Positions 16,290-59,644 of a DNA stretch of 64,000 nucleotides are shown here, in pieces. Source of the stretch: Candidatus Marinacidobacterales bacterium (lineage in GTDB: Bacteria > Acidobacteriota > Vicinamibacteria > Marinacidobacterales > SMYC01); assembly GCA_965197495.1 (NCBI GenBank), contig OZ240210.1, positions 7,998,481-8,062,480 of the forward strand. Direction: 5' to 3'. A program made the translations under genes and the position numbers. The notes under the pieces were generated by a model. It made no database searches. It was not told where the DNA came from and saw only the letters and a list, made by a program, of their open reading frames with translations. Position 1 is the first letter of the stretch. Each line of letters starts with the position of its first letter.

Positions 16290-16307
16290 CGCACGTCGAG
16301 CTTAAAC

Positions 16308-20233: not shown

Positions 20234-20483
20234 GAAAGCGAAAGCGAGAGCGAGGAAGAGCACTCGGCGGGCTCTATTGATGCTTCTGTGTTCGACGCTG
20301 CTAGCAGCGTCATCCCGGCGGACGGTGACGTCGTGAGCTCCCTGGAAGATCTCGTCGCGCCCAGCGGAAATGGTAAGTGTTTTCGAAACTCTGTGTCTCT
20401 GTGGGCATTCTTAAGGCGCCTCATGCACACGATTTGGGGAGCGGCCGAGCTTTCAGGTTTACCTGGATAGCATTAGTAGTACG

Positions 20484-21893: not shown

Positions 21894-21906
21894 GGTCCGG
21901 GCTGCG

Positions 21907-21960
21907 AGATCTAGAGAAAAGCGTAACGCAAAGGCGTCAAGGTTCAAAGACGCGAAGGTT
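21907..21960 (+). repeat. Solo copy of the MITE terminal repeat (aaaagcgtaacgcaaaggcg...caaagacgcgaagg) overlapping a hairpin gaaggttcaaaccttc. It lies 14 bp downstream of the patatin-like gene and may act as a terminator.
   Basis: A 20-nt and a 13-nt exact match to the 15216-15275 arm. The hairpin has a 6-bp stem. Confidence 0.4.
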
Positions 21961-21980
21961 CAAACCTTCAGCGCTGTACA

Positions 21981-22565
21981 ATGGGACCAGTTATGTCCAG
22001 TGTTCTCGATTTGACCTTTATCGGCCTCGCGGGGCTCTTTACGGTGTGGAACGTCTTTTTTCTAGCTCGCTACGCGCGATATCGGCGCCTCATGCCCACC
22101 GCCGAGCTCACGTGGCGGCCCACCCGGCCGTGGTTTTACAACATGTGCATCGGCATCGGTTTTTTCATGGTGAGCATGACGGCGTTGAGCCTCTTCGTTT
22201 TGGATAGGCCAATCCTCTCGAGCGTGGCCCAGGGCCTGATGGCCATCTACTACACGATCGCCTTTCCTCTCTCGTTTCAAATTCAACCTGGTTTCTACAA
22301 GTCGGGCATCTGGTTCGACCGCTCCTTCGTGCCTTATACGAAAGTGCGGCGTTTGGGGTGGCGCGAACAGCCGGACATCGTTCTGATCGTCACGAAGGAA
22401 ACAGGCCTGATGGAGCAGGACTACGCGCGGCTTCAAGTTCCGAGAGAGCGCTACGGCGAAGCGCGGCGCATTCTGGCGAGCCATATCGATGACCAGAGTC
22501 TCTCCATCGAAACGGGAATTCTGGGGCTCGACGAGGGCGACATGCCGGCGCAGGAGCGCGTATGA
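21981..22565 (+). CDS. Hypothetical integral membrane protein (194 aa, ~4 TM). It overlaps the start of the downstream HMT/MTHFR gene by 4 bp.
   Basis: Hydrophobic segments LTFIGLAGLFTVWNVFFLA, FYNMCIGIGFFMVSMTALSLFVL and LMAIYYTIAFPLSF. An ATGA overlap at 22562 links it to the next gene. Confidence 0.4.
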   Translation: MGPVMSSVLDLTFIGLAGLFTVWNVFFLARYARYRRLMPTAELTWRPTRPWFYNMCIGIGFFMVSMTALSLFVLDRPILSSVAQGLMAIYYTIAFPLSFQIQPGFYKSGIWFDRSFVPYTKVRRLGWREQPDIVLIVTKETGLMEQDYARLQVPRERYGEARRILASHIDDQSLSIETGILGLDEGDMPAQERV

Positions 22566-24412: not shown

Positions 24413-24481
24413 TTCGTGCGTGGCCGGTGCTGCTTCCGGCTGCCCGCTACCTGCACATCATTCAAGTCGCACCGCTTTAAG

Positions 24482-24973
24482 CTGAAGTTCTGCCCAGTAA
24501 GCCCTCCCACGCTTCGGTAAAGTACCTTTAGTCGCATGGAGTTACAGCGCTAGAGGTGTGATTTTTGCCTGCAATTGGTAGCCATGTTGTATTGTATTTT
24601 TTATTGTTATATATGCCTATATAGTGTATATAGTAGCCATGCACATCGATATCGTGCCCAACCGCAACTCCAAACCCGCCGTTTTGCTCCGTGAGTCCTA
24701 TCGGGATGCCAAGAGCAAGAAACCGCGCAAGCGCACACTTGCCAACCTGTCCAAACTGCCGAGCGAGCAGGTCGATGCCATCCGACGCATACTCAAGGGG
24801 CAAAAGCTCGTTTCGCTCGAAGACGCCTTCGAAATCGTCGAGAACGGCTCCCGGCACCATGGCCACGTCGACGCGGTGCTCAGTGCCATGAGACAGCTCG
24901 GTTTCGAAAAACTCGTTGGCTCTCGACACTCACCAGAGCGGGATTTGGTCGTGGCCATGGTAGTCGCCCGGAT
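24482..24973 (+). mobile_element. IS1634-family copy 1, 5' portion (end CTGAAGTTCTGCCC, leader, and transposase aa 1-117 from ORF 24624..).
   Basis: It matches the reverse complement of 56376..56867 of the full copy. Homology ends at 24973 (CCCGGAT). It complements the 16308..18033 fragment exactly, with a 7-bp overlap. Confidence 0.85.
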
Positions 24974-25195
24974 GAGATCCCGGAGACGAACCGCTACATC
25001 CCCTCTCAAGGCCGGCTTGCGGTACTTCGTGATAAATACGAAGTGATAGTTTAACTGATACGTCGTGTGCGATGATTTACGATATCCTTTCACCTGGGGA
25101 TCGTACCCCAAGCCTCCTAAAGGCTTCGCCTAAAGGCGAGGGATTTCAACCATCCCCGAGTGGGACATTAATTCATATGGAATAAGGAAGGGGGG
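24974..25195 (-). mobile_element. tnpA: IS200/IS605 fragment: tnpA N-terminal half (25111..24974, MGYDPQVKGYRKSSHTTYQLNYHFVFITKYRKPALRGDVAVRLRDLIR) plus left-end hairpins (tcgcctaaaggcga).
   Basis: It contains the Y1 transposase N-terminal HUH region (YHFVFITKYR). Joined through the shared ATCCGGG to 18034.., it gives an intact ~140-aa TnpA. Confidence 0.7.
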
Positions 25196-25744
25196 GCTCG
25201 ATTAGTGGAGGCTATGGAAAACGCCCTTCCAGGCTTCGAAGAGAACTCAGTCGTGAGCAAGGTCTGAACGACCAGAACCGTGGGGGCGTTTCCCACAGCC
25301 TCGTCTCCCGCTGAGGGGCAGTGGCATTTGGTGAGGCCCGTGGGTTGAGAGGGTAAGCCATGTGTAGATGCGCATCGGCGAGAACGCTAGAATCTTTTTT
25401 TCCGAAAGAGAAAAGAGCGTTCCCGCGATGCGCGTTACTACGTTAGTCAACAAGCTCATCGGATTGCAAGGCCTGTGGGTCCGAGGTTTCCACTTCCAGG
25501 CGGACAAAGCCAGAGTGGTGGTGGATGTAGTACCACGGAGGAGGAAGCCTCTGTGCGGGATTTGCGGACGAAAGGTCCGCAAGAACAAAGATCGCTACAA
25601 TCGCTACTGGCGGCACTTGGACCTGTTCGGAGTCCGGACCTATCTTCGCTACTCGATCCGACGAGTGGTATGTCGGCGGTGTGGAGTGGTCAGAGAAAAG
25701 GTGCCTTCCCTCTGTGCCAACATCGCTGAGACACTTCGCCCCTT

Positions 25745-27385
25745 GAAATTAGTGTAGAGGGCGGAGGAGGATCAATGCATGAGTATGTTGATTGAGAGAG
25801 AGACCTCGGCGGGATCGGAGGGAGCCCGTAGGGCGACTGGAGATCCCGCCGGCCGCGATGCGGCGGGGGTCCCGGATCCCGAAGTGAGCGAGCAAGCGAA
25901 GCGTCGACGCTTTACCGCGGAGTACAAGCTGCGGATAGTGCGTGAGGCCGATGCCTGCAAGGGTGACGGTGACGTTGCTGCTCTTCTGCGTCGAGAGGGC
26001 CTGTACTCGTCGCATTTATCGAGTTGGCGCCGCCAACGTGACGAGGTCGCCAAAGCGGGGTTGGCGTCGAGAAAGCGAGGCCGGAAGGCAAAGGCCGAGG
26101 ATCCACGGGTCAAGGAGCTCGAGCGCGAGAACGCCCGGCTCCAACGTCGCCTGGCTCGGGTGGAGACAATGTTGGAGACCAAAAAAAAACCTCCGAATTA
26201 CTGGGGATCCCCCTGAATCCACTCGACAGCTACGAGAACGACTGATGGTGGCGGCCGAGGAGCTGGCGGGGCAGATTGGGCAGACGACGGAAGCCTGCGA
26301 GGCTCTGGGTGTGGCTCGTTCCACGCTGTATCGCAGGCGCCAGGTGACGCCCGAACCGAAGCGGCGTCCTCGGCCGCACCGAGCCTTCGACGAGACTGAG
26401 CGCGAGGAAGTCCTCGGGGCCTCGCACTGTGAGCGGTTCGTCGACAAGGCGCCCGCCCAGGTGTGGGCCACGCTTCTGGACGAGGGAACCTACCTCTGCT
26501 CGATTCGCACGATGTATCGGATTTTGGAGGAGCACGGCGAGGTCCGAGAGCGCCGGAACCAACGGCGCCATCCGAACTACACGAAGCCGGAGCTGCTGGC
26601 CGAAGCGCCCAACCAGGTTTGGTCGTGGGATATTACGAAGCTTCGTGGCCCCGTCAAGTGGACCTACTACTACCTCTACGTCATCCTCGACATCTTCTCC
26701 CGCTACGTGGTTGGCTGGATGCTGGCTCACCGAGAAAGTGCGGCGCTCGCGCAACGCCTCATCGCCGAGAGCTGTCGCAAGCAGGACATTGAACCCGACC
26801 AGCTCACCCTTCACGCGGACCGTGGCAGCTCGATGAGAAGCAAGCCCGTGGCTCTGCTCCTGGCTGACCTCGGAGTTACCAAGACCCACTCCAGACCTTA
26901 TGTCTCGAACGACAATCCCTACTCCGAGTCCCAGTTCAAGACGATGAAGTACTGCCCTCAGTTTCCGAGCCGTTTTGGTTCCGCCGAAGACGGCCGGCTG
27001 TTCTGCGGCGGTTTCTTCGACTACTACAACTACGAGCACCGGCACTCAGGAATCGGCTTCATGACGCCGGCCGACGTTCACTATGGTCGCGCCGAACAGC
27101 TCACCACCGCTCGGCGCCAGATCCTTCTCGAAGCTCATCGGACTCATCCCGAACGCTTCGTTCGCGGAACGCCACAACCTCCCGTTTTGCCTCCTCAGGC
27201 TTGGATCAACCCGCCGACGGAGAAAACGACGCTCCTGAATGCCGCACAAGCCACTCTCGCGGCGGCGTCCATACCTGGGGTACCCCCTTTTTCTGCTCCA
27301 CGAAACGAGATCTCGATCGATGCAGATGTGGACCGCACCGGCGCCACGAGCCTCCCGACGCTAATCGAGGCTCACTAAATGCAGC
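25745..27385 (+). mobile_element. IS3-family element nested in the ISL3 transposase gene. orfA is 25779..26216 (HTH + leucine zipper). orfB is ~26186..27378 (DDE integrase core, e.g. NQVWSWDITKL...DNPYSESQF...YNYEHRHSGIG). An A9 run at 26182-26190 is at the orfA/orfB junction.
   Basis: This is the classic IS3 two-ORF organisation with an A-run slippery site. In this sequence orfB lies in the +1 frame relative to orfA, not the canonical -1 frame. Confidence 0.85.
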
Positions 27386-27654
27386 TCGCGAGTGTCTCAA
27401 AGTTGTTGACACGTACCGCTTGGGCCGACAAGGGAAGCCGCTTTACCAAAAGCTTCGAACAAGAGGTAGCGTGGCTGGCACAGAGGACGGACGTCAGCGC
27501 CGTAGCGAACTATTTCCGAGTGACGTGGCGTTCGGTGCGACGGATCATCCAGCGAGTGGTTGCCGAGCAGCGGGATGAGCGGCGCGAGCTCGATGGATTG
27601 CGGGTGATTGGGATGGACGAGATCAGCTACCGCAAACGCCACAAGTACTTAACC

Positions 27655-27840
27655 CTAATCGCAAAATCTTCGAAGCACGAAAACGCGAAACAGCCGCACT
27701 GGGCGCAGGCGAGAAGCTCGTGCTGGGGCACCCGCTCGCCGCCACTATAGGTGATTCTGCACGGTGTATGCAGAACCTGGAAAAGGTGCTATTCACGGGG
27801 CCAAAGACCTCAGACACGGTGACGTTTATTTGCGATTAGG
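27655..27840. repeat. 186-bp region: a 17-bp perfect inverted repeat (aaccctaatcgcaaa / tttgcgattagggtt) bracketing a ~155-bp insert that interrupts the ISL3 transposase reading frame.
   Basis: Removing 27670-27825 restores ...HKYLTL|VVIDHLSGRVVW.... It is either a hairpin-type micro-insertion or a local inverted duplication. Confidence 0.45.
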
Positions 27841-28570
27841 GTTAACAGTGGTAATAGACCATCTCAGCGGCCGGGTCGTCTGGGCGGGAAAGGAGCGCAA
27901 GGCCAAGACGCTGCTGCGGTTTTTCCGCAAGCTCGGACCACAAAGAGCCGCGGAGCTCGAAGCGGTCAGCATGGACATGTGGGAGCCGTACATAACTGTC
28001 GTCGGCAAAAAGGCTCCTCAGGCACGGGTGATCTTTGACCGCTTCCACATCGTCAAGCATCTGAACGAGGCCGTGGATAAGACCCGGCGCGAGCTGGTGC
28101 GCGAGCTCAAAGGGACTGCCCGGCGGAACCTCAAAAACACCAAGTTTCCCCTTCTCAAGGCCAAACACAACCGCAGCGCGAAAGACAAACGGGTGCTCCG
28201 CGAGCAGGTGCGAGCTAATCGTCGCCTCTACCGCGCCATGCTTCTGCGCGACGACTTCATGGACCTCTACACCTACAAAACCGAGACATGGGCCAAGAAG
28301 TTTCTCCGAGGATGGCTGCGGCGCGCTATGAGCTCGAGGATAGAGCCCGTCAAACGCGCGGCGAAGATGATCCGCAGCCACTTCGATGGCGTCATCGCGT
28401 GGGTCACGTGGAGACTCAGCAACGGCCGACTCGAAGGAATGAACAACAAAATCCGGCTGCTGAGCCACCGCAGCTTTGGACTCCACTCTGCCGAAGCTCT
28501 CATCAGTCTCGTCTACCTAAACTGTGGCGGTCTCACCCTCGAGAGGATCCACTGAAATGGCAGGAGAGGC

Positions 28571-28680
28571 AAAACTGTTTCACGGCGTCCTCCAGCGTGG
28601 GAAAGGGTTGTCGTGACATCTTCCTACTCTGGATGTGGCGCCGTGTCTACTTCACGCCCAGATTGTGCATCGAGCCCGCG
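28571..28680 (-). mobile_element. Detached 5' end of ISx copy A (first ~110 nt, including codons 1-16 MSRQPFPTLEDAVKQF). The ISL3 insertion separated it from 18644..20233.
   Basis: It matches the reverse complement of 40262-40371, then abuts the ISL3 right end. ACAGTTTT is duplicated at both ISx/ISL3 junctions. Confidence 0.65.
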
Positions 28681-28721
28681 TTGGGCTGACGTGGTGAGCG
28701 AGCCGACAGCGAAGAGTCAGG

Positions 28722-29087
28722 ATGAAAGACTTTCGAGATCTAAAGGTTTGGGAGAAGGCCCATCAGCTAGTCAAGGGTTTGTACCAGGCCACCGGCCACT
28801 TCCCAACCGAAGAGAAGTTCGGCTTGACGGCTCAGATGCGCCGAGCGGCGGTTTCCATCCCGGCGAATATTGCTGAGGGCTGTGGACGCGGTTCAGACCG
28901 GGATATGGCCCGCTTTCTTCAAATGAGTATGGGCTCAGCAAGCGAGCTCGAATACGAACTGCTCCTTGCCCACGAGCTCGGGTTGCTCGATAGCCAAAGT
29001 CTTCAGGAGCTTGCCGAGCGAACCACCGAGGTCAAGCGTATGCTCGCCTCTCTCATCCGGAGGCTCGAATCCGGAGCTGACCGCTGA
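28722..29087 (+). CDS. Four-helix-bundle protein of the TIGR02436 family ('23S rRNA intervening-sequence protein', Avd-like fold), copy 1.
   Basis: MKDFRDLKVWEKAHQLVKGLY...FPTEEKFGLTAQMRRAAVSIPANIAEG...GSASELEYELLLA is a family signature. It is 99% identical to 39853..40218 on the minus strand. Confidence 0.8.
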   Translation: MKDFRDLKVWEKAHQLVKGLYQATGHFPTEEKFGLTAQMRRAAVSIPANIAEGCGRGSDRDMARFLQMSMGSASELEYELLLAHELGLLDSQSLQELAERTTEVKRMLASLIRRLESGADR

Positions 29088-29192
29088 ATGCTGACCGCTG
29101 ACCGCTCGCGGCGGAGCCGTCCTCCAATTTGGTTGCGGCTCCGCCGCGCTGTGCCTCTGTGGCCATCCCCTTTGGTTGCGGCCACAGGCTGC
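29075..29192 (+). repeat. Hairpin repeat element copy a. The motif gctgaccgctga(atg)ctgaccgctgaccgctcg is followed by a 12-bp GC stem GCGGCGGAGCCG with a 16-nt loop TCCTCCAATTTGGTTG, then ...CGGCTCCGCCGC and gctgtgcctctgtggccat. It starts inside the last codons of the 4HB gene.
   Basis: Copies with the same core are at 39735-39866 (minus), 41931-42030 and 42169-42298. Confidence 0.7.
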
Positions 29193-29288
29193 GCTTGGAC
29201 GAAGTTCGAAAGTGTGAACAAGATCCTCGTTTCTGAGCAGTTAGATGGTAGTGGCGTCTGCCATTCTGCGCCTGTGTATAATCCGCTA

Positions 29289-33144: not shown

Positions 33145-33609
33145 CTACCTACCCCGTCGAAATCGAAAGCGCTGAATCCAGCGTATCCTCACAGGGACCC
33201 CGTTCTTGGTCGCCGGTTGATAGCGCCATTCTTGGACTGCCCGGGTCGCGTTGGCGTCGAACATCTCGCCGCCCGACTTTTGAACCGTGACATCTTGGAC
33301 CGCGCCGTTTTCGTCGATGACATAGCTCAGCTCGACCAACCCTTCCATTCCTCGTCGCCGCGCCTCTTCTGGATAGGGGGCTGCTCTACACTCGAGACAT
33401 TTGGGATCGATAACACCAGAGTCCCCGCGCTCGACGAGCGTCCCAGATGAGACCGATGCGACCTTCGGCGCTTTTGTCGTCGGCGACGGGGAGGGGTTAC
33501 GCGCGGCACGACCATCCCGCGTCAACATCGCGTCGACATGGTGTCCGCACAATCGGGCCAGACGATCAATGTCTTCCCACGGCAAATAGCCTCGACGCTC
33601 AATGCGCAC
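33145..33609 (-). CDS. TonB C-terminal-domain protein. The true start is probably M at ~33528; the annotated start would overlap the upstream kinase by 88 nt.
   Basis: PYPEEARRRGMEGLVELSYVIDENGAVQDVTVQKSGGEMFDANATRAVQEWRYQP matches the TonB_C fold consensus. Confidence 0.5.
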   Translation of the reverse strand: MRIERRGYLPWEDIDRLARLCGHHVDAMLTRDGRAARNPSPSPTTKAPKVASVSSGTLVERGDSGVIDPKCLECRAAPYPEEARRRGMEGLVELSYVIDENGAVQDVTVQKSGGEMFDANATRAVQEWRYQPATKNGVPVRIRWIQRFRFRRGR

Positions 33610-35513
33610 GACCCGGTTCCCTGGAGGGACCCCGTACTTTTCTGTGGGTGTCGTCCCGACCCTCTGGCCGTCGATGGCAACCCGCGCGCCGCCGGTACCA
33701 GCACCAGTTCGAAGTTCGCGAGAGGCTCTTCTCCCGTCAACGCGGCGCTGAGCTCTTCCGGAAGATAGCCCGATCGTTCGACTCTCAGCGCGTAGTCACC
33801 AAACGGGAGTGCTTCGAGCTCGAGGGGCGTGGTGCCGCGTTTCACACCGTCGAGAAAGACAAGAGCGCCCTCCGGTTCCGTCGTCACCGTCAACGTACCG
33901 GATTCGACGGCCGTCGACGCGGTCACAGCGTCCGGGATCGGCTCTCCGCCCGAAAAAATGAGGAACAAAGCGAAAATCATCGCAACGAAGACCCCCGCTC
34001 CGAGAGCCAGCCGCCTGGGAGGCAAAGCACGCAGCCTGGCAATAGCAGTCCGGGCAGTCCGGGCGGGCGGGCCTTGGATGACGGTTTCGTCCGCCGCGTC
34101 GAAGGCGCGGAGCGTTTCGTCCAGCTCGGTTTCCGCGTACAAAGTCGCTTCAACGTCACCCCGCGGAGCCATGAGCACCGTGTCCTCGCCGATTTCTTCC
34201 TCGCTCGGTCGGGCCTCGCGGTTCGTATCCGCCGACACGTCGACGAGCGTGCGATCACGCCTGAGGGTCATCGTCACGCCTTCGAGCGATTCGTCTCGGC
34301 CGGCCGCGGTGGGGGCGCTTTCGGTGGCGAGCGCGTCAACGGATAGGACCACGGTATCGCTCGAGGCATTCTCAACTGGCTCAACTGGCTCAACTGGCTC
34401 AACTGGCTCAACTGGCTCAACTGGCTCAACTGGCTCAACTGGCTCAACTGGCTCAACTGGCTCAACTGGCTCAACTGGCTCAACTGGCTCAACTGGCTCA
34501 ACCGGCTCAACCGGCTCAACCGGTTCAACCGGCGTCGACGACACCGAGCGAACGGGGGCGGCGTCGAAGCGAACATCTTTCATGACGATGGTCTCGCCCT
34601 CGAGACCACCGAACCAGGACCCGAGGCAATGTTCGAGGTGCACGACGAACTCCGCTGCCGTGGAAAAACGCTCGTCCGCCTCTTTCGCGAGCACTATCGA
34701 GAAAACGTCGTGCCATTTGTCGGGCAGAAGACCCAACACTTCCAAATCGTCCGGGCGGACGGGATCGGCGTGGACAAGCTTGTATAGGATCGACGTGACG
34801 TTGTTGCCCGGAAAAGGTTGCTGTCCGGAGAGCATCTCGAACGCAACGACACCGAGCGAAAAAATGTCGCTCCGGCCGTCGAGATCCTCTCCCATCGCTT
34901 GCTCCGGTGACATGTAGCTCGGTGTCCCAAGCATGAGGCCCGAGTTCGTCATATCGGCATCCATGAGCTTCGCGATCCCGAAATCCGCGACTTTCACTTT
35001 CTCGCCGCCAAACACAATAATGTTGGACGGTTTGATGTCGCGATGGATGACACCTTCGCCATGGGCGTAGTCGAGCGCGCTCCCGATCTGGGAGACGAGA
35101 CCGACGACGACTGCGGGGCGGAGCTTTTCACCTTCGAGCAAGTCGGCGACGGTCTCGCCCTCGATGAACTCCATCGCAAGCCAGGGAAGCTGGTCGTCCG
35201 TGTGGCCGACATCGTAGAGAGTGATGATGTTCGGGTGCGACAAACGGCCCGCGGTGCGCGCCTCTGTCGCAAAGCGTTCGAGAAAAGCTTTGTAATCAGG
35301 ACTCTGCGACGGCACATCGACGCGCAACGTTTTCACCGCGACGGGTCGCTTGATCAGCGGGTCGAAGGCTTTGTAGACTGCTCCCATGGCACCGAAACCG
35401 ACCGCCTCGATGATCTCGTAGCGGTCGATCTTCTTCGGGATTTGGGCACCACGCTGCGTCAACGGGGTTCTCCTGTCGTACGGCTCGAATCTCTGGTCAG
35501 AACCGCCGGGCAC
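33522..35513 (-). CDS. Ser/Thr protein kinase with a 21x VEP tandem repeat, a TM segment and a C-terminal PEGA domain.
   Basis: Kinase motifs [29 protein letters not shown]. The DNA repeat (ggctcaact)n at 34370-34533 encodes (VEP)n. The C-terminus [35 protein letters not shown] is a PEGA domain. Confidence 0.8.
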
Positions 35514-38458: not shown

Positions 38459-39811
38459 TCACGCGACGGCCTCGTCGGCCTCAATCGCGGTCGAGTCGAT
38501 CTCGCCTTCCGCGGCCGCGACATAGCTCGCGTTCACGAGGTGCCCGATGAGATTGGTCGACGAGCGCGCCATATCGAGCGGCCGCTCGACGCCGAGGATG
38601 AGGGCGGCGCCTTCGAGAGGCAGCCCAAGCGCGGCGAGGATGATCGTCAAGTTCACGAAGCTCGCGGCGGGTACGGAGGCGACGGCGAGCGCCGATAGCA
38701 TCGCGGTAAAGATGAGCGTCCCCAAATCCTGGGCGCCGAGCGTGACACCGTAGACCTGCGCGATGAACATCACGGAGATCCCCTGGTACATGGCACTTCC
38801 GTCGCGGCCTATCGCCGCACCGAGCGGTATAACAAAGCTCGCGACGCGCGAGGAGATCCCCATCCCTTTCTGCATCGTCGACAGCGAAACGGGCAGTGCC
38901 GCGGCCGTCGAGCACGTGGCGAAGGCAATGAGAAGAGGAGGTTTAGCGGCATCGACGAAACGCTTCGGACTCTGGCGCGCCACGACGCGAAGCATCACGC
39001 CGTAAACGAAGACGATATGCAATATCAGTGCGAGCACGACGACACCGACATAGGCCGAGAGGCTGAGGAGCACCGAAAGACCGGAGCGACCCACGACCGC
39101 CGCCATGAGACCGAAGATGCCGAACGGCGCAAGCTCGAGGATCCAGCCTGTCACTTTGAAGAGCGTCTCGGCGAGGCTTCTCGCAAGCTCGACCACCGGC
39201 TTGCGGCGATCTTCGGGAAGCGCGCTCGCGGCGAGACCGAGCAAAATCGACACGAGCAGAATCTGCAGCACGTTGCCTTCCGCCGCTGCGCGCACCGGGT
39301 TGTCCGGCACAATAGCGAGAATCGTATCGACGATCGCATCGACGACAGATGGCTTCGGCGCATTGGAGTCCACGACCGGGATGGCTTTGCCCTCGAGCAG
39401 CGCGCTCCGTGCTTCCGAGGAGAGCATCTTCCCAGGCTGGATCACGTGGCCCACCGCGATGCCGATACACAGGGCCACAAAGAGGCTGATTACGATGAAA
39501 CCGAAGGCACGCACACCCATCCGTCCGAGCGCGGACCGGCCCGGGAGACCCGCAATGGCCATGATGAGCGACGAGGCAATGAGCGGAACGATGACCATGC
39601 GGATGAGCTTGATGAACAAAGTCCCGAGCGGCTCGAGGACCGACGCGCTCGGCCCGGCCACGACGCCGACGAGGACGCCGGCGAGAAGCCCGATCGCGAC
39701 GCGGTTGTGGATCTTCAAAGCGGTCCGGAACTTATCACAATCACGGCCGTTCGACCCAAACCAAAAAATGGCCACAGAGACACGGAGGCACAGCGGCGGA
39801 GCCGCAACCAA
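38459..39811 (-). CDS. Dicarboxylate/amino-acid:cation symporter (DAACS; GltP/DctA-like). The annotated ATG lies inside the hairpin repeat; a TTG start at ~39722 (MKIHNRVAIGLL) is plausible.
   Basis: LGTLFIKLIRMVIVPLIASSLIMAIAGL..., 8-10 TM, and the conserved GAAIGRDGSAM region. Confidence 0.8.
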   Translation of the reverse strand: MVAAPPLCLRVSVAIFWFGSNGRDCDKFRTALKIHNRVAIGLLAGVLVGVVAGPSASVLEPLGTLFIKLIRMVIVPLIASSLIMAIAGLPGRSALGRMGVRAFGFIVISLFVALCIGIAVGHVIQPGKMLSSEARSALLEGKAIPVVDSNAPKPSVVDAIVDTILAIVPDNPVRAAAEGNVLQILLVSILLGLAASALPEDRRKPVVELARSLAETLFKVTGWILELAPFGIFGLMAAVVGRSGLSVLLSLSAYVGVVVLALILHIVFVYGVMLRVVARQSPKRFVDAAKPPLLIAFATCSTAAALPVSLSTMQKGMGISSRVASFVIPLGAAIGRDGSAMYQGISVMFIAQVYGVTLGAQDLGTLIFTAMLSALAVASVPAASFVNLTIILAALGLPLEGAALILGVERPLDMARSSTNLIGHLVNASYVAAAEGEIDSTAIEADEAVA

Positions 39812-39866
39812 ATTGGAGGACGGCTCCGCCGCGAGCGGTCAGCGGTCAGCATTCAGCGGTCAGCTC
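39735..39866 (-). repeat. Hairpin repeat element copy b, in the same relationship to the 4HB gene as copy a (starts in the last 4HB codons). Its 3' flank ctgtgcctccgtgtctctgtggccat...atcacggccgttc is shared with copy c.
   Basis: The reverse complement of 39738-39866 aligns with 42169-42298 over ~120 bp. Confidence 0.7.
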
Positions 39867-40218
39867 CGGATTTGAGCCTCCGGATGAGAGAGGCGAGCAT
39901 ACGCTTGACCTCGGTGGTTCGCTCGGCAAGCTCCTGAAGACTTTGGCTATCGAGCAACCCGAGCTCGTGGGCAAGGAGCAGTTCGTATTCGAGCTCGCTT
40001 GCTGAGCCCATACTCATTTGAAGAAAGCGGGCCATATCCCGGTCTGAACCGCGTCCACAGCCCTCAGCAATATTCGCCGGGATGGAAACCGCCGCTCGGC
40101 GCATCTGAGCCGTCAAGCCGAACTTCTCTTCGGTTGGGAAGTGGCCGGTGGCCTGGTACAAACCCTTGACTAGCTGATGGGCCTTCTCCCAAACCTTTAG
40201 ATCTCGAAAGTCTTTCAT
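39853..40218 (-). CDS. Four-helix-bundle protein (TIGR02436 family), copy 2, with one amino-acid difference from copy 1.
   Basis: Identical to 28722..29087 apart from E->K near the C-terminus. The upstream 100 bp are also identical. Confidence 0.8.
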   Translation of the reverse strand: MKDFRDLKVWEKAHQLVKGLYQATGHFPTEEKFGLTAQMRRAAVSIPANIAEGCGRGSDRDMARFLQMSMGSASELEYELLLAHELGLLDSQSLQELAERTTEVKRMLASLIRRLKSGADR

Positions 40219-41951
40219 CCTGACTCTTCGCTGTCGGCTCGCTCACCACGTCAGCCCAACGCGGGCTCGATGCACAATCTGGGCGTGAAGTAGACACGGC
40301 GCCACATCCAGAGTAGGAAGATGTCACGACAACCCTTTCCCACGCTGGAGGACGCCGTGAAACAGTTTTTATCACGTCACGAGGATCGAATCACAGGGGT
40401 GCTGAGCGGATTCGACCGGTTGGTGTTCCGCGGAACCCTACGCCACATTTCTTATACGGACGGCATGGGTAAGTACCTTTCCTACCAGAAAATCCTTCTG
40501 AAGGAGTTCGCGGAGTTCGCACTGCAGCGTACCTCCGAGCTCAAGCAGGCCTTGTATCAGCAGGCGGAGCGACTCGAGCGTCCGGTCGTCTATCTGGAGT
40601 CTTCCCGTAAGAACAAGGAGGCCATCGCACGCGAGATTGCACAACAAGACAATGTCCGCAGTGGTCTCATCGCAGTGCTGAGCTGCGTGGAACCTTGTAT
40701 CACCTTCAGCATACGTCGCAACCGCCAGAAGAAGCGGTTGGAGCTCGTGCAATCCCTCAGAAAGTGCCTAAACTTTTACCACTACTGCATGGACCCTATT
40801 TTTGGTTTCATGCATGCCCGTATCCAAAGCTGGTTTCCATTCAATGTTCAGGTCTACGTCAACGGCCGTGAATGGCTCGCCGTTGAGATGGATAAGGCTG
40901 GCATTCAATATCGGCGCCGGGAAAACTGCTTTACCTGGGTTGAAGATGCCCACGCGGCACAGCAGCTTCTCGATGAGCAGCTCAAAACCAACTGGCCTCA
41001 CATCCTGAATCGCCTGAGTCGATTCGTCAATCCATTGCAAGACAAATTATTCCCGCCGAGTGGCCTCGACTACTACTGGAGTGTCTACAGCAGCGAATGG
41101 GCCACCGACGTCACGTTTCGTAACAGCTCTAGCCTCGCGGAGATCTATCCCGCTCTTGTACATCATGCGATCACAAACTTTTCGAGCCCCGACGTGATGC
41201 GCTTTCTCGGAAAACGGATTCGAACCGACTTTTCAGGGGAAGTCGTCAGCCGATTTCGCGACCGGCCCGAGGGTCTGCGTATCAAACATGCCCTCGACCT
41301 CAATTCCGTCAAACTCTACGACAAACAAGGTTCCGTGCTCCGTGTGGAGACAACCATCCAGCGTGCCGAGGGTATGCGCTGCTACCGGCCAAAGGAAGGC
41401 GACCCCAACGGCCCTCTCGAGTGGCGTCCGCTCCGTCGTGGCATCGCAGACCTGCATCGTCGTGCCCAGCTCTCCCAGGACTCCAATGAGCGCTACCTCG
41501 ACGCTCTCGCCGCTTGTGATACCTCAACCCCACTCGGTCGACTCCTCGCTCGCGTCAGCCAAAAAACTCAATGGAATGGCTCCACCCTCCGAGCTCTTCG
41601 CCCTTGGGACGCTCTGGACGCCCGACTCCTCGCCGCTATTTCCCGTGGAGAGTTTCATCTGCGAGGCTTTCGCAACAGGGAACTCCGTGCCTTGCTCTTT
41701 CCAAAGACTTCGGACGACCCTCTCGAAACCAGGCGGCTAAGCGGACGCGTCACCCGGCTCATTCGCATCCTCCGAGCCCACCGTCTTGTCAAAAAAATTC
41801 CCAAAACTTTTCGCTACAGACTCACAAAGCGCGGTCAGCAACTTTGCTCCGCATTACTTACCGCAAACTCTCTCTCCCTCGATAAACTCCACGCTGCTGC
41901 CGCATGATTTTTCTTCTTCTCAAAACAAGCTTTTCAGGGTTAGTAGTACAG
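40219..41951 (+). mobile_element. ISx copy B (left boundary uncertain). It encodes a 528-aa protein (40321..41907) of unrecognised family. It has no obvious DDE, HUH, recombinase, RT or nuclease motifs, and its C-terminus is Arg/Lys-rich.
   Basis: A second 99% identical copy is at 18644..20233. Flanks diverge after ...gggttagtagtacagaga. It is divergently paired with a 4HB gene in both copies. Confidence 0.65.
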
Positions 41952-42030
41952 AGACACAGCGCGGCGGAGCCGTCCTCCAATTTGGTTGCGGCTCCGCCGC
42001 GCTGTGCCTCTGTACTACTAACCCGAAAAA
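41931..42030 (+). repeat. Hairpin repeat copy d, embedded in a near-perfect 42-bp-arm palindrome (ttttcagggttagtagtacagagacacagcgcggcggagccg / loop / ...cgggttagtagtacagaggcac...). It is immediately 3' of the ISx gene and incorporates the ISx right-end sequence.
   Basis: Arms match in 40 of 42 positions. The loop is the same 16-nt TCCTCCAATTTGGTTG. Confidence 0.7.
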
Positions 42031-42168
42031 GCTTCTATTTCTTGCAAGAATTTGAGCGGCTGCGGCCGGATCCGCAAGAGGGTAAATCAGTTAGAAGAGG
42101 CACCGCGGCGAAGAATTGGGACGGCGCACACTGAGAATGGGACCGAGGCGCGAAGCGCCGAGCACCAC

Positions 42169-42298
42169 GAGCTGACCGCTGAATGCTGACCGCTGACCGC
42201 TCGCGGCGGAGCCGTCCTCCAATTTGGTTGCGGCTCCGCCGCGCTGTGTCTCTGTGGCCATGCTTTTGGGCGTTGAAGATCTATAATCACGGCCGTTC
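42169..42298 (+). repeat. Hairpin repeat copy c. It carries only the last 14 nt of a 4HB 3' end (gagctgaccgctga) and lies in the metH 5' leader.
   Basis: Matches copies a and b. It is followed by ~120 nt of leader before the metH ATG at 42420. Confidence 0.65.
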
Positions 42299-42419
42299 CA
42301 TCCACTGGAAGGCGCCCGTTGGCCCCGACGGAGGGGCCACCGGATGCTCCAACCAAACCGTTGCGCGCACGAAGCTTGCGTCGCGAGGGCGAAGTTGTTA
42401 TCAACTTAGAACGACAACG

Positions 42420-49471: not shown

Positions 49472-52400
49472 CTAGTCATTCGTGGGCACCAGCCGTTTTA
49501 GTTCTTCGGTCCAGTTGAGGACGACATGGATTTCGCGGGCATCGACGTCACCGCTCCAGCGAATCATGAGGAAACGCTTGCCATCGGGAGTGATGTCGAA
49601 CTGACGGCCGCCTCCGCGGACGTAGTTACCGCCAAACAACTTCTGTGGCGTCCCCGATTCGAACGTCGGCTCCGTCCGAATCGGTACGGCAACGTAAGCG
49701 TCCTCCTCTGTCGAGAAATAGAAGAGCTCCGAACCATCGGGTGCCCATAAAGGCCAGTTACCCCCGTGCGGCGCCGGTTGGTATCGGCCACCATTCACGT
49801 CAGGGAAGGTTCGGACGTCGATCTGCATTCGCCCCGCTTCTTCGGCGGCATAGGCCATGAATCTGCCGTCGGGAGATAGCGCCGGCCAGCGCTCGGCATA
49901 CGGCTCGTTCAAGAGGGGCTCATGCGACGGCTCATCCATGAGCGTGAGTTTCCCGATGTCGAGGCGGTTGCCGGCAGCGTTCCGCTCCACCGTCAGAAGC
50001 GTCTTTCCATCAGGGGTGAACGCGTAAGGTCGGATCCCTAGCCTGAAGTTCCTTGGTCGAATGAACCCACTGACAGTGTGAATCCCCAATGATTACGCGT
50101 CTTTAGGGAACGCCGAGAGGCTGATTTTGGGTTGCAATATATAGGCATGTCTAAAGCCTTTTATGGTTTGATATACATTGATATATAGGCTATTATGGTG
50201 GGCATGCATACCCACATCATCCCCAATCGCAACTCTACCCCCGCGGTCCTGCTGCGTGAGTCCTATCGGGTGGGCGGAAACGTCCGCAAGCGCACGCTCG
50301 CTAACTTGTCCAAATTGCCCATGGACGCAGTCGACGCCATCCGACGCATTCTCAAAGGGGAAAAGCTCGTCTCGGTTGAAGTCGCCTTCAAAATCGTCGA
50401 GAACGGCTCCCGGCACCATGGCCACGTCGACGCGGTGCTCAGCGCCATGAGACAGCTCGGTTTCGAAAAGCTCGTTGGTTCTCGACACTCACCAGAGCGG
50501 GATTTGGTCGTGGCCATGGTAGTCGCCCGGATCCTCGAACCGCAGTCGAAGCTGGCGACTAGCCAGTGGTGGCACACAACCACACTGCCCGAAATCCTGG
50601 GGGTGAGCGATGCCCGCGAAGACGATCTCTATGCCGCCATGGACTGGGTTCTCAAACGCCAGGAGGTCATCGAAAAAAAACTCGCGGCGCGCCATCTCCA
50701 AAACGACGGCCTGGCGCTCTATGACCTAACCTCAAGCTACTTCGAGGGTGTGAGTTGTCCGATCGCCCGCCTCGGATACGACCGTGACGGCAAGAAAGGC
50801 AAGCTGCAGATCAACTACGGTCTGCTGACCAACGAACGCGGCATCCCCGTGTCGGTATCCGTCTTTGAGGGCAACACGGGCGATCCCAAAACGCTGTTGC
50901 CTCAGGTAGAAAAGGTGCAAGAGCGCTTCGGCATCGAGCAGTTTGTGATGGTGGGCGACCGCGGAATGATCACCCAGACCCAGATCGACGAGTTGCGGGA
51001 GATGGACGGTGTCGACTGGATTACCGCTCTGCGTCCCGAACCGATTCGCAAGCTCATCAACGATGGGGTGCTCCAGATGGGGCTATTCGACGAGCGGAAT
51101 CTGTTTGAGGTGACGCACCCGGATTTCCCCAACGAGAGGCTGGTCGCTTGCCGCAATCCGGAGCTGGCCGAGAGGCGGCGTCACAAGCGCCGTGCTCTGC
51201 TCGAAGCGACCTGCAAGGAGCTGGAGAAAGTTTGTCGGATGGTCGAGCGGCGCCGTTTGCAGGGCAAGGAGGACATCCGTGCTGCAGTGAAAAAGCTCCT
51301 CAACAAGTACAAGGTCGGCAGGTACTACAGGCTCGACATCCGTGACGACGGTTTCGACTTCGAGCTAGACGAGACAACGATGGCTGCCGACGCCTCGCGC
51401 CTCGCCAACGGCAACTCTGAGCTCGCCAACAAACGGCTCCAGCGGTGGAAGCGACACATGGGGACGATCGCTAAGCAGTTGGAACGGATTCGCCAACGGA
51501 TCGGGCGGGGTCAGCTGCATGGTAAAGATAAAATCGGTGTGCGGGTAGGCAGAGTTCTCAACAAGTACAAAGTCGGCAAGCACTTCAAGCTGGACATTCG
51601 CGACGACAGCTTTAGCTTCGAAATCGACGACACAAAGGTCACTGCGGAAGCTGCCCTTGACGGCATCTACGTGATCCGCACCAGTCTTGCTGAGCAGCGG
51701 ATGAAAACCGACGACACAGTGCGCAGCTACAAGTTGCTGACCCAGGTCGAGAGGGCGTTTCGTTCCTTCAAGAGCATGGACCTAAAGGTGCGGCCGATTC
51801 GTCACCGGCGCGAAAACCGAGTCCGGGCGCACGTCTTCTTGTGCATGCTGGCCTACTACGTCCTGTGGCACATGATGGAGGCTTGGCGGCCGCTGCTATT
51901 CTCTGACGAGGACCAGCAGGCGAAGGCCAGCGTGACCCGGTTGCTCCGGCGAAGCGCTCCGAGGCCGCCCTGCGCAAGATACACACCAAGAAGCTTGACG
52001 ATGGGAGTCCAGCTTCCGCACGCTGCTGCGCCTTCTCAGCAACATCGTCCGAAACAAATGTCGGCGACCGGAAGCCGGACCCGACGAGCCCACCTTCGAT
52101 GTCACGACAACTCCGGACTCGAAACAGCAGAGAGCCTACGACCTGCTCAAAGGTATCACCGTGTAGACAGAAGCCAGCACCATTGATTCCAACTATCTCA
52201 TTGGATCAACACCGGATCTTGGCTTTTTCAGCCAGGAACTTCAGACTAGCAGTTCATCCGACCGCGGAAACTCGACTGGCTCGGCTTTCCCACTCCCGTC
52301 CCCCGCCTTCGAAAACAATTGCGCTCGGCCTCCCCGTTGCGACTGGAAAAACACAGGGTGCCGTCGGGCGTCCAGAGTGGATTGATGTCGACGGCCGGAT

Positions 52401-54644: not shown

Positions 54645-54655
54645 CACGGATTAGA

Positions 54656-56867
54656 CTGAAGTTCCTTGCTGAAAAAACCAAGATCCGGTGTTGATCCAAT
54701 AAGATAGATGGAATCAATGGTGCTGGCTTCTGTCTACACGGTGATACCTTTGAGCAAGTCGTAGGCTCTCTGCTGTTTCGAGTCCGGAGTTGTCGTGACA
54801 TCGAAGGTGGGCTCGTCGGGTCCGGCTTCCGGTCGCCGACATTTGTTTCGGACGATGTTGCTGAGAAGGCGCAGCAGCGTGCGGAAGCTGGAAGCTGGTC
54901 TCCCATCGTCAAGCTTCTTGGTTTGTATCTTGCGCAGGGCTGCGTCGGAGCGTTGCGCCGGAGCGACGGGGTCACGCTCGGCCTTCGCCTGCTGCTCCTC
55001 GTCAGAGAATACTAGCGGGCGCCAAACCTCCATCATGTGCCACAGGACGTAGTAGGCCAGCATGCACAAGAAGATGTGCGCCCGGACTCGGTTTTCGCGC
55101 CGGTGACGAATCGGCCGCACCTTTAGGTCCATGCTCTTGAAGGAACGAAACGCCCTCTCGACCTGGGTCAGCAACTTGTAGCTGCGCACTGTGTCGTCGG
55201 TTTTCATCCGCTGCTCAGCAAGACTGGTGCGGATCACGTAGATGCCGTCAAGGGCAGCTTCCGTAGTGACCTTTGTGTCGTCGATTTCGAAGCTAAAGCG
55301 GTCGTCGCGAATGTCCAGCTTGAAGTGCTTGCCGACTTTGTACTTGTTGAGAACTTTGCCTACCCGCACACCGATTTTATCTTTACCATGCAGCTGGCCT
55401 CGCCCGATCCGTTGGCGAATCCGTTCCAACTGCTTAACGATCGTCCCCATGTGTCGCTTCCACCGCTGGAGCCGTTTGTTGGCGAGCTCAGAGTTGCCGT
55501 TGGCGAGGCGCGAGGCGTCGGCAGCCATCGTTGTCTCGTCTAGCTCGAAGTCGAAACCGTCGTCACGGATGTCGAGCCTATAGTACTTGCCGACCTTGTA
55601 CTTGTTGAGGAGCTTTTTCACCGTAGCACGGATGTCCTCCTTGCCGTGCAAACGGCGCCGCTCGACCATCCGACAAACCTTCTCCAGCTCCTTGCAGGTT
55701 GCTTCGAGCAGAGCACGACGCTTGTGACGCCGCCTCTCGGCCAGCTCCGGATTGCGGCAAGCGACCAGCCTCTCGTTGGGAAAATCCGGGTGCGTCAACT
55801 CAAACAGGTTCCGCCTGTCGAATAGCCCCATCTGGATCACCCCATCGTTAATGAGCTTGCGAATCGGTTCGGGACGCAGAGCGGTAATCCAGTCGATACC
55901 GTCCATCTCCCGTAACTCGTCGATCTGGGTCTGGGTGATCATTCCGCGGTCGCCCACCATCACAAACTGCTCGATGCCGAACCGCTCTTGCGCATTTTCT
56001 ACCTGAGGCAACAGCGTTTTGGGATCGCCCGTGTTGCCCTCAAAGACGGATACCGACACGGGGATGCCGCGTTCGTTGGTCAGCAGGCCGTAGTTGACCT
56101 GCAGCTTGCCTTTCTTGCCGTCACGGTTGTATCCGAGCCTGGCCAGCGGACAACTCACCCCCTCGAAGTAGCTTGAGGTTAGGTCATAGAGCGCGAGGCC
56201 GTCGTTTTGAAGATGGCGCGCCGCGAGTTTCTTTTCGATGACCTCCTGGCGTTTGAGAACCCAGTCCATGGCGGCATAGAGATCGTCTTCGCGGGCATCG
56301 CTCACCCCCAGGATTTCGGGCAGTGTGGTTGTGTGCCACCACAGGCTAGTCGCCAGCTTCGACTGCGGTTCGAGGATCCGGGCGACTACCATGGCCACGA
56401 CCAAATCCCGCTCTGGTGAGTGTCGAGAGCCAACGAGTTTTTCGAAACCGAGCTGTCTCATGGCACTGAGCACCGCGTCGACGTGGCCATGGTGCCGGGA
56501 GCCGTTCTCGACGATTTCGAAGGCGTCTTCGAGCGAAACGAGCTTTTGCCCCTTGAGTATGCGTCGGATGGCATCGACCTGCTCGCTCGGCAGTTTGGAC
56601 AGGTTGGCAAGTGTGCGCTTGCGCGGTTTCTTGCTCTTGGCATCCCGATAGGACTCACGGAGCAAAACGGCGGGTTTGGAGTTGCGGTTGGGCACGATAT
56701 CGATGTGCATGGCTACTATATACACTATATAAACATATATAACAACAATAAATACAATACAACATGGCTACTAATTGCAGGCAAAAATCACACCTCTAGC
56801 GCTGTAACTCCATGCGACTAAAGGTACTTTACCGAAGCGTGGGAGGACTTACTGGGCAGAACTTCAG
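54656..56867 (-). mobile_element. IS1634-family copy 2: the complete element (2212 bp) with an intact 663-aa transposase (54734..56725) and a 6-bp target-site duplication ATTAGA.
   Basis: ATTAGA at 54650-54655 and 56868-56873. Terminal inverted repeats CTGAAGTTCCTTGC / GGGCAGAACTTCAG. The DDE region includes VMVGDRGM and LRPE. Confidence 0.85.
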
Positions 56868-56873
56868 ATTAGA

Positions 56874-57000
56874 AACTCTATCCCACCTTTCCCAATGGGC
56901 TCGCGGATCTCGTAGTGGGCGAGCTTCTGACCGTTTTCAAGCGACACAGCGCAACGATCCTAAGACGATGAGGGTCGTCGTGGCAACGTCTTTGCGGGGC
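56874..57000 (-). other. ~110-bp duplicate of the 5' end and upstream region of the kinase gene 57015..59624 (encoding ...SLENGQKLAHYEIREPIGKGG), abutting IS1634 copy 2.
   Basis: 56880-56990 aligns with 59545-59655 at ~85% identity. The reading frame dies inside the IS target duplication. Confidence 0.5.
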
Positions 57001-59624: not shown

Positions 59625-59644
59625 AGCGCGCCGATCTTAGGACG

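Follow-up and report, generated by a model that had tools for sequence, protein, structure and literature searches.

Which DNA moves at this locus, and what enzyme moves it? In a stretch of 64,000 nucleotides from a Candidatus Marinacidobacterales bacterium (contig OZ240210.1, positions 7,998,481–8,062,480; referred to as the window), a gene for an Avd-like four-helix-bundle (4HB) protein stands divergently beside an open reading frame (ORF) for a 528-amino-acid protein, and an original prediction, made from the DNA letters of the window, had proposed that the pair forms a mobile module bounded by hairpins. Window positions 39794–41951 are an intact copy (copy B) of a 2.16-kb mobile element (Table 1). 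With a probability of about 0.6, this element is considered to be an unnamed, widespread transposon that moves by a rolling-circle or single-strand route and is mobilized by its 528-amino-acid protein, a Rep_trans-like tyrosine-nickase transposase with a TATA-binding-protein (TBP) fold and distinct from the HUH enzymes.

Copies of the Element and Their Spread

Self-BLAST of the window aligns 40362–41954 with 18644–20235 on the same strand (99.5% over 1593 nt) and 39781–40369 with 29161–28571 in inverted orientation (99.3% over 591 nt), in agreement with the claim of two copies that are more than 99% identical, one of them fragmented. The second copy (copy A) is decayed: it was split by an element of the ISL3 family of insertion sequences (ISs) and then scrambled by further insertions. 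Its 4HB gene (28722–29087, +) differs from that of copy B by one amino acid, and its large ORF has a frameshift near the 3′ end, the reading frame 18702–20336 overrunning the normal stop. The predicted arrangement of a TIGR02436-type 4HB gene (2.1e-38), a divergent spacer of about 100 bp (102 bp between the starts) and a 528-codon ORF holds, and the 4HB gene ends, as had been noticed, within a hairpin repeat, its stop and last four codons falling in the left end (LE) of the element. Scans of 39650–42350, including the 40219–40320 spacer, for sigma-70 and terminator consensus sequences gave no match.

The same unit occurs outside the window. A protein from the same 90%-identity cluster as the window's large protein, P0524, accounts for seven further copies, 99.5% identical to the window, in which LE, 4HB gene, ORF and right end (RE) are uninterrupted and outside which the flanks diverge; six lie in unrelated contexts (L095–L100) and one more is L101. 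The inference of a transposable unit is thereby upheld. At least 12 sequence variants of the window's large protein are present on one 9.2-Mb contig.

The wider family is large. The 528-amino-acid protein has at least 7,988 homologous clusters at 90% identity, nearly all of about 516 amino acids and without a Pfam domain, most of which are on contigs of 1.7–2.5 kb; at 50% identity, 11,517 clusters match with E ≤ 1e-3, including 1,843 with E ≤ 1e-30. In contigs that represent one genome per species, 297 loci were confirmed, with hosts in the Acidobacteriota, delta- and alpha-proteobacteria, Spirochaetes, Planctomycetes, Elusimicrobia and others. Single genomes contain three to five copies that are 99–100% identical over 1.68–1.87 kb alone (the ORF with about 70–190 bp on its 5′ side and about 50–100 bp on its 3′ side) and have unrelated flanks, which identifies the family as a multi-copy, single-gene transposable element. 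Most members are such single-gene elements of 1.7–1.9 kb. Members are labeled hypothetical by PGAP and JGI, and a distant plasmid relative is called an ArsR regulator by PGAP. Exact-sequence look-ups of P0002 and P0519 returned no record, and no description of the family, or of a TBP-fold transposase, was found in the literature.

Ends, Target Site and Junctions

The LE of the element has the motif CG(CG)GCGGA-GCCGCAACCAAA, which contains a small GCGGC/GCCGC hairpin. In copy B, a long hairpin with 11-bp arms and an 18-nt loop spans 39793–39832 and is followed at 39837–39864 by four heptamers (GGTCAGC, GGTCAGC, ATTCAGC and GGTCAGC); homology to an LE copy that lacks the 4HB gene extends to 39866. 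The LE of copy B is 2 nt shorter than those of other copies (CACAG^CGGCGG versus CACAG^CGCGGCGG; the caret marks the junction). Across the family, the exact 12-mer GCCGCAACCAAA lies 44–206 nt 5′ of the ORF in 65 of 84 copies, and aligned LEs read C-A-C/T-A-G^CGCGGC-(3–5 nt)-GCCGCAACCAAA, the stem being a short GCGGC(C)/(G)GCCGC hairpin in which compensatory GTGGCC/GGCCAC variants occasionally appear. Over 61 LEs, the bases 5′ of AGCG are C (95%), A (68%) and C (65%) or T (32%). At the other end, TAGTAGTACAG occurs about 32 nt 3′ of the stop codon in 37 of the 84 copies; family REs read TTAGTAGTACAG, with near-random base composition after ACAG, and most of the 50 distinct RE sequences that were folded contain a hairpin, variable in sequence, in the interval from the stop to the terminal motif. 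Terminal inverted repeats (TIRs) are absent from family elements.

The left boundary was set by comparing an empty with an occupied allele. In an intact amidohydrolase gene (L092–L094) the sequence reads ...GCGCAGATCCACAG^GGTCGAAG (GCGCAGATCCACAG^GGTCG in L092), and the occupied allele (L084) is 100% identical to it through the G of GCGCAGATCCACAG and then continues with CGCGGCGG / CGCGGCGGAGCCGCAACCAAA. CACAG is thus host sequence, and the element starts at CGCGGC. The left-junction tetranucleotide differs from the right-terminal one in 34 of 63 copies (for example, CTAG on the left and GCAG on the right in all five CAWBUN copies); ACAG was therefore rejected as a target duplication, and the AG common to both junctions is not a target-site duplication (TSD). 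Precise head-to-tail junctions between RE and LE (TAGTAGTACAG^CGCGGC...) are found at four loci (L012, L036, L048 and L073), and near-adjacent tandems at two (L077 and L096).

In the window's lineage, the 16 nt 5′ of the LE are almost always GGCCACAGAGRCACAG, which is resembled by the verified host site in L084, GGCGCAGATCCACAG, and this suggests an extended target preference. Octamer-like units (GGCCACAGAG ACACGGAGG) stand just 5′ of the CACAG of copy B at 39789–39793. Short arrays of CACAG-containing octamers or decamers (CACAGAGA, CACAGAGG, CACGGAGG and CACAGATGAA) precede LEs and often also follow REs, at 39770–39793, 42250–42262 and 29149–29165 in the window and at many other loci (among them L011, L027, L031, L045 and L059). 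Each unit is a potential target, and the arrays may be traces or products of the activity of the element; they also yield spurious ORFs such as 42091–42261.

Further repeats adjoin the ends. Directly 3′ of the RE of copy A is a repeat of about 155 bp (20240–20394) bounded by inverted ACAGAG/CTCTGT, which is oriented one way in the window, L097 and L098 and the opposite way in L082, L095 and L099. Its far end (20385–20408, -), ATGCCCACAGAGACACAG^AGTTTCG, resembles an unoccupied target site. An inversion catalyzed at a pair of cleavage motifs could account for the two orientations, as could independent insertions on one side and the other. A second RE-like motif, ATTAGTAGTACGG, lies at 20466–20486, about 240 bp 3′ of the copy A RE, and is followed directly by a 469-amino-acid ORF without a Pfam match (20484–21893). 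In the CAXXWT genome (L044–L053), the RE is always followed by the hairpin ACAGGCGCCCTCGCCTGT, the left flanks belong to one repeat family, and a second RE-like sequence shows compensatory changes (ACAGCCGCCCTCGGCTGT); the element there seems to sit within the stem of a specific hairpin resembling repetitive extragenic palindromic (REP) sequences.

The Right Palindrome

The palindrome that had been described directly after the large ORF of copy B is real (41927–42034, 88% over 109 nt in self-comparison) but lies outside the element. On the two sides of a solo LE-type hairpin (41955–42006) stand two REs, tail-to-tail, one of copy B and one of a 235-nt non-autonomous derivative that resembles a miniature inverted-repeat transposable element (MITE), and these two REs facing one palindromic hairpin explain the 42-bp arms. 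The derivative consists of an LE through GGTCAGCTC, then 134 nt without relation to the element, and finally 27 nt of RE (AAGCTTTTTCGGGTTAGTAGTACAG); BLAST aligns 42169–42269 with 39866–39761 at the LE of copy B. Of the hairpins first taken to bound the module on both sides, only the left one is the element's own, whereas the right palindrome combines a neighboring solo end with the miniature derivative. Rfam at gathering thresholds found nothing, and at relaxed thresholds one spurious plant microRNA model on the palindrome. A solo hairpin stub also stands beside the LE of copy A and, likewise, in L085, L088, L097 and L099.

The 528-Amino-Acid Protein

The large protein was described as belonging to no recognizable family, and searches of the Pfam, NCBIfam, PHROGs and PADLOC profile libraries gave no match. 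Searches of PDB sequences, with a single sequence or a profile, returned only weak MarR-type winged-helix and chance WD40 matches, and Foldseek of the full model against the PDB gave nothing meaningful (best E 0.016, TM-score 0.1). AlphaFold models are confident both for the full protein (predicted local distance difference test score 86.4, predicted template-modeling score 0.78) and for residues 1–400 (92.2 and 0.89, respectively). Structure prediction, which had been proposed as a means of placing the protein, led to no known transposase family, but the fold itself is recognizable: in the models, the first 400 or so residues form a double TBP-like β sheet of the type found in Rep_trans and Rep-Arvir proteins, which are initiators of rolling-circle replication, followed by winged helices.

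An ordinary DDE insertion sequence (IS4, IS701, ISAzo13, IS1182 or ISNCY-like) too divergent for profiles would have a similar size (1.7–2.2 kb with one ORF of about 520 codons). Membership of these families was rejected, as there is no profile match, no RNase-H fold, no TIR and no TSD, and this explanation is extremely improbable.

In Rep_trans proteins, the tyrosine lies on one strand and three metal-binding carboxylates each lie on a separate strand (Carr et al., PMC4797284); the motifs are N′ (D), I (RxD), II (T/SxY/ExG), III (YxKxxE) and IV (W/LxRxE) (PMC5714925). Archaeal Rep-Arvir (DUF7845) initiators, which are reported to be exclusive to archaea, combine a TBP-like catalytic domain with MarR-like winged helices that come after it; Tyr283, Glu25 and Glu303 are essential, and kinship to Rep_trans is visible only in the structure (PMC13107129, 2026). 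In family members that are 27–36% identical, the invariant N-terminal residues are Asp32, Arg33, Gly38, Gly115, Glu124, Tyr153, Tyr155, Gly162, Pro173, Asn181, Asn202, Trp253, Glu259, Asp263, Lys331, Tyr333, Arg341 and Glu343, and the charged residues and tyrosines among them are all on predicted β strands. The segment K331-L-Y333-D-K335 followed by L-R341-V-E343 parallels R-I-Y188-N-K ... W-R-V-E211 of RepD and resembles Rep_trans motifs III (YxK) and IV (RxE) (PMC5714925), and E259-W-A-T-D263 parallels D-L-A-F-D of RepD.

The 528-amino-acid protein is probably the transposase of the element. Between the element ends in 14 gene-called contexts there is no second transposase, save the ISL3 element that splits L082 (an ISL3 fragment is also present in the flank of L099). 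Alternatively, a non-autonomous element could be moved by an outside enzyme (an IS200/IS605 Y1 TnpA or a REP-associated tyrosine transposase, RAYT), with the 528-amino-acid protein as an accessory DNA-binding factor, comparable to TnpB-only elements of the IS1341 type. The ends resemble those of IS200/IS605 in having a hairpin, a fixed target and no TSD, the distant relative noted above is annotated as an ArsR-family regulator, and the window contains a split IS200-like TnpA gene (24698–25111 and 17976–18341). That gene is, however, an unrelated insertion inside ISL3; no IS200-type Y1 TnpA occurs in or beside about 100 family loci, the ends keep the same nucleotides from phylum to phylum, with only the 528-amino-acid family protein conserved alongside them, and the residues conserved in the protein show the pattern of an active site and not only that of a DNA-binding surface. 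Mobilization from outside is accordingly improbable.

The Four-Helix-Bundle Gene

The 121-amino-acid 4HB protein matches PF05635 (1.4e-38, 131.8 bits versus a cut-off of 33.8) and TIGR02436 (130.9 bits versus a cut-off of 24). Its gene is in the same place, between LE and ORF, in L084–L089 and L095–L101: besides the P0524 lineage, it accompanies the large proteins P0003, P0004 and P0005 (74% protein identity) in L084–L089, where at least three flanking contexts are visible, and L084 and L085 are different loci in which both genes are 100% identical. The identity of the 4HB proteins (79–88%) tracks that of the large proteins (74–90%). Between the window and L088, the 4HB codons show 40 synonymous versus 23 non-synonymous differences, and the gene is under purifying selection.

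In the family at large, a 4HB gene is nearby in two of 80 species-level loci and in the same position only in L052. This member (L052:3462–5584), from an uncultured delta-proteobacterium, is about 49% identical to the window's large protein and has a 4HB protein 46% identical to the window's; its 4HB gene follows a long hairpin and four heptamer repeats of the TCGAGAG type, in the layout seen in the window. In a neighbor-joining tree, the window clade is monophyletic and L052 is a separate lineage whose sister, L073, has no 4HB gene; the gene either arose twice or was lost many times. The idea of a two-gene module stands for the window's lineage, in which all ten loci of relatives that were examined have the 4HB gene and the finding named beforehand as fatal to the idea, a copy lacking that gene, did not occur, but not for most of the family, from which it is absent: the 4HB gene is lineage-specific cargo that transposes with the large gene and is not part of the family core.

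That the mobile unit includes the 4HB gene is close to certain. The converse would be that the hairpin and the 4HB gene form a pre-existing repeat targeted by a single-gene element, the 4HB gene being a neighbor and not cargo. Solo hairpin copies do exist, the family inserts beside LE-like hairpins, and 4HB genes are multi-copy in many genomes. This explanation is largely refuted and very improbable: the seven further copies keep LE, 4HB gene and RE uninterrupted while their flanks diverge, L084 has LE and 4HB gene within an amidohydrolase gene, both of them absent from the intact allele of that gene, the miniature derivative has an LE without a 4HB gene, and 4HB gene and ORF co-diverge.

An Avd-like gene might also point to a remnant or variant of a diversity-generating retroelement (DGR). 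The DGR-type models match the 4HB protein weakly (bAvd, PF22296, 3e-6; DivGenRetAVD, NF033474, 4e-6, with 27 bits versus a cut-off of 80), both scores being far below the curated cut-offs, whereas those of PF05635 and TIGR02436 are far above theirs. No reverse transcriptase (RT) is present in the 14 gene-called contexts, and the self-comparison of the window shows no pair of template and variable repeats. With no RT in these contexts and the DGR Avd models far below their cut-offs, a DGR link is unsupported, and its probability is close to nil. The 4HB protein may be a chaperone of nucleic acid or of the transposase, which is a guess.

Proposed Mechanism

The observed behavior comprises unrelated ends, a hairpin at the cleavage site, a fixed target kept at the left flank, no duplication, head-to-tail junctions, and a right terminus that repeats the cleavage motif. 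As this behavior is like that of IS91, Helitrons and IS200/IS605, and the protein resembles non-HUH tyrosine nickases, a Rep_trans-like transposase is proposed. One strand would be nicked directly after CACAG, at the base of the LE hairpin (CACAG^CGCGGC-loop-GCCGCAACCAAA), and a second nick would follow the matching ACAG at the right terminus (TTAGTAGTACAG^); the cleavage points would be GGCCACAGAGACACAG^CGCGGCGGAGCCGCAACCAAA on the left and GGGTTAGTAGTACAG^N on the right. The nucleophile would most likely be Tyr333 in the K-x-Y-x-K strand, with the metal held by the carboxylates of Asp32, Glu259/Asp263 and Glu343 on separate strands. The GGTCAGC heptamers or the LE hairpin are the probable binding sites of the two winged-helix domains at the C terminus. 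The released or replicated strand would be joined from RE to LE, and the product would enter the DNA 3′ of another CACAG-type site, with neither inverted repeats nor a target duplication.

Tyrosine-nickase chemistry is slightly favored, and several observations weigh against it or against parts of the scheme. PF02486 (Rep_trans) does not match the 528-amino-acid protein at E ≤ 1, hhalign against a RepD alignment gave a probability of 0.1 with a shallow template (staphylococcal sequences at least 85% identical only), and local alignment of the motif region to RepD is no better than with shuffled sequence (z = 0.09). The equivalence of Tyr333, Glu343, Glu259 and Asp32 to the Rep_trans active site is a putative one, a match of patterns, and the invariant Tyr153 and Tyr155 are equally good candidates for the nucleophile. 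With respect to the ends, the RE hairpin could be a mere transcription terminator, the near-constant 16 nt GGCCACAGAGRCACAG could belong to the element instead of being a target that it prefers, and the orthologous empty site covers the left junction only, the right flank of L084 deriving from another locus.

These points leave some room for a transposase of other chemistry, namely a metal-dependent hydrolytic nuclease or strand transferase that acts without a covalent tyrosine, by double-strand cut-and-paste or copy-out. Five invariant acidic residues (Asp32, Glu124, Glu259, Asp263 and Glu343) would suit it, as would the lack of significant sequence similarity to Rep_trans and a fold match to non-enzymatic TBP that is as good as that to Rep proteins. 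It is nevertheless unlikely. Double-strand transposition by DDE or DEDD enzymes normally leaves a TSD and needs similar ends, whereas here the ends are unrelated and there is no TSD; insertion is 3′ of a fixed pentanucleotide; and a tyrosine nickase agrees with the three invariant tyrosines, of which one stands in a K-x-Y-x-K strand with R-x-E after it.

More boldly, the family might represent a sixth chemical class of prokaryotic transposase beside the DDE, DEDD, HUH, serine and tyrosine-recombinase classes: a TBP-fold tyrosine nickase related to Rep_trans and Rep-Arvir that acts by a rolling-circle or single-strand route, moves an element that ranks among the most common without annotation in bacteria of soil and sediment, and has recruited an Avd-like 4HB protein as a cofactor in some lineages. 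This proposal is tentative, its chances being a little short of even.

Surroundings of the Element in the Window

Table 1. Features of the element, its copies and its derivatives, in window coordinates.
Feature	Position	Strand	Remarks
CACAG target pentanucleotide, left junction	39789–39793	+	Flank, outside the element; from empty versus occupied allele
Left end (LE)	39794–39866	+	Conserved motif, hairpins, heptamers
4HB gene	39853–40218	-	121 amino acids; PF05635/TIGR02436, Avd-like fold; between LE and large ORF
Spacer between divergent start codons	40219–40320	.	102 bp; AGGAAG just 5′ of the ATG at 40321
528-amino-acid protein, putative transposase	40321–41907	+	Predicted: residues 11–400, double TBP-like β-sheet domain; 405–528, winged-helix domains
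Right end (RE)	41908–41951	+	A/T-rich short hairpin region 3′ of stop, then terminal TTAGTAGTACAG (41940–41951)
Solo LE-type hairpin	41955–42006	-	CACAG CGCGGCGGAGCC GCAACCAAATTGGAGGAC GGCTCCGCCGCG CTGTG
235-nt non-autonomous MITE-like derivative	42010–42244	-	Local alignments to both ends of copy B
Copy A, left part	28571–29148	-	LE, 4HB gene and first 16 codons of large ORF; self-BLAST
Copy A, right part	18644–20232	+	Remaining large ORF and RE; ends TTAGTAGTACAG at 20232
Degenerate solo LE hairpin stub	29171–29197	-	CAAGCGCAGCC-TGT-GGCCGCAACCAAA; just outside copy A LE

The two self-BLAST matches share 8 bp, ACAGTTTT, at 18644–18651 and 28571–28578; ISL3 transposase domains lie in the DNA that adjoins both break points of copy A (DDE_Tnp_ISL3, 3.1e-64); and in a related metagenomic contig (L082) the same copy contains a contiguous ISL3 element. 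Together these show that copy A was hit by ISL3 in codons 14–16 of the large ORF, with the 8-bp target duplication, in accord with the predicted ISL3 insertion inside one copy. The ISL3 element was later hit by IS3-family and IS200-like elements and the IS200-like element by an IS4-like element, and an inversion parted the halves.

The resulting IS nest, with its inversion, covers 16302–29148, in which ISL3 pieces occupy 18421–18643, 25167–25707, 27419–27653 and 27842–28570. The IS3-family element within ISL3 has an orfA (25779–26216) and an ORF with an rve domain (25942–27378). The IS200-like Y1 TnpA gene within ISL3 is split and inverted, with its N-terminal part at 24698–25111 (-) and its C-terminal part at 17976–18341 (+). 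A 2.2-kb IS4/IS1634-like element encoding a 523-amino-acid DDE_Tnp_1 protein occupies the regions 54651–56871, 50160–52248, and 16302–18033 with 24478–24973; one copy is full, one is inverted and 94% identical, and the third, in two opposite pieces with a 7-bp overlap (56376–56382), is probably the inversion breakpoint. In L082 (806–3049; a long-read contig of low coverage, 2x), the duplication on the two sides of ISL3 is not of 8 bp alone but a direct one of 197 bp of the element (window 40173–40369), and the contig lacks the LE and the 3′ half of the 4HB gene; an artefact of assembly or another rearrangement accounts for this.

Two other repeats are present in the window. A perfect 9-bp tandem repeat (CTCAACTGG, 18 copies, 34371–34533) encodes (PVE)18 within a 663-amino-acid ORF (33522–35513, -) that resembles Ser/Thr protein kinases, and a 108-bp direct repeat with 86% identity (56880–56987 and 59557–59663) is unrelated to the element.

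Implications

If the 528-amino-acid protein is the catalyst, an abundant hypothetical family (more than 11,000 clusters at 50% identity), which breaks metagenome assemblies into contigs of about 2 kb, becomes interpretable as a transposase. The conserved ends (CGCGGC-loop-GCCGCAACCAAA ... TTAGTAGTACAG) could be used to annotate both elements and miniature derivatives. Nickases of the Rep_trans/TBP fold would extend from the replication and transfer of plasmids, phages and integrative and conjugative elements (ICEs) to transposition, in parallel with the HUH enzymes. On the proposal of a sixth class with a 4HB cofactor, PF05635, which also occurs inside hairpin-bounded rRNA intervening sequences, would gain its first testable function outside DGRs, and the strict co-mobility of the 4HB gene offers a simple genetic system for probing the function of Avd-like proteins. 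For the sequence-specific insertion of DNA, an element that enters at a fixed point 3′ of a short motif and leaves no duplication may be attractive.

Comparison With Known Systems

The proteins of the element match none of the named IS families tested (DDE, HUH Y1/Y2 and TnpB), and its likeness to known transposons is in its behavior, which is of the rolling-circle and single-strand kind. Like the present element, IS91, ISCR and Helitron elements have neither TIR nor TSD, insert next to a fixed short sequence that their right terminus resembles, and show a subterminal hairpin and head-to-tail tandem copies. Those elements use HUH Y2 enzymes, whereas here neither profiles nor folds of the Y2_Tnp or HUH type are matched, and it is at the end upstream of the gene that the conserved hairpin lies. 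IS200/IS605 elements likewise insert 3′ of a lineage-specific tetra- or pentanucleotide that is retained at the left flank, without duplication; their left and right cleavage sequences need not match, and they have hairpin ends and miniature derivatives. In contrast, the present element has no Y1 TnpA (PF01797) and no TnpB, and its two ends do not have similar hairpins. REP/RAYT systems (REPtrons) resemble it in their dispersed GC-rich hairpins related to the ends of a mobile gene, with solo hairpins and short derivatives near the copies, but RAYTs are single-copy, domesticated HUH Y1 enzymes, whereas here the coding element is multi-copy and the enzyme unrelated.

Among PF05635/TIGR02436 proteins, which include those of 23S rRNA intervening sequences and share the fold of DGR Avd, the 121-amino-acid protein is a clear member (1e-38). 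Unlike its relatives, it is neither in an rRNA intervening sequence nor adjoined by an RT; it is a conserved passenger in a DNA transposon, a role for which no prior description was found.

The proposed enzyme has its closest counterparts among replication and transfer proteins. Rep_trans/MOBT relaxases (RepC and RepD of pT181 and pC221, RepSTK1; PF02486) have the TBP-like double β sheet that is predicted here, but there is no detectable sequence or profile similarity, the present protein has helical inserts and exceeds them in length by about 200 residues, and its genes are in multi-copy chromosomal IS-like elements instead of plasmids, phages or ICEs. Rep-Arvir/DUF7845 proteins (RepSNJ2) of archaeal viruses and plasmids differ in that the present family is bacterial, belongs to a chromosomal transposon and not to a replicon, and does not match PF25227. 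They have the same order of a TBP-like N-terminal domain and winged helices (PMC13107129), and their Glu25, Asp207, Tyr283 and Glu303 may be set beside Asp32, Glu259/Asp263, Tyr333 and Glu343 as one tyrosine with spread carboxylates. Rep-Arvir and the present element are also alike in having a hairpin as a cis element, and the novelty lies in the combination of a hairpin-ended, duplication-free transposon with a putative enzyme class that has not previously been tied to transposition.

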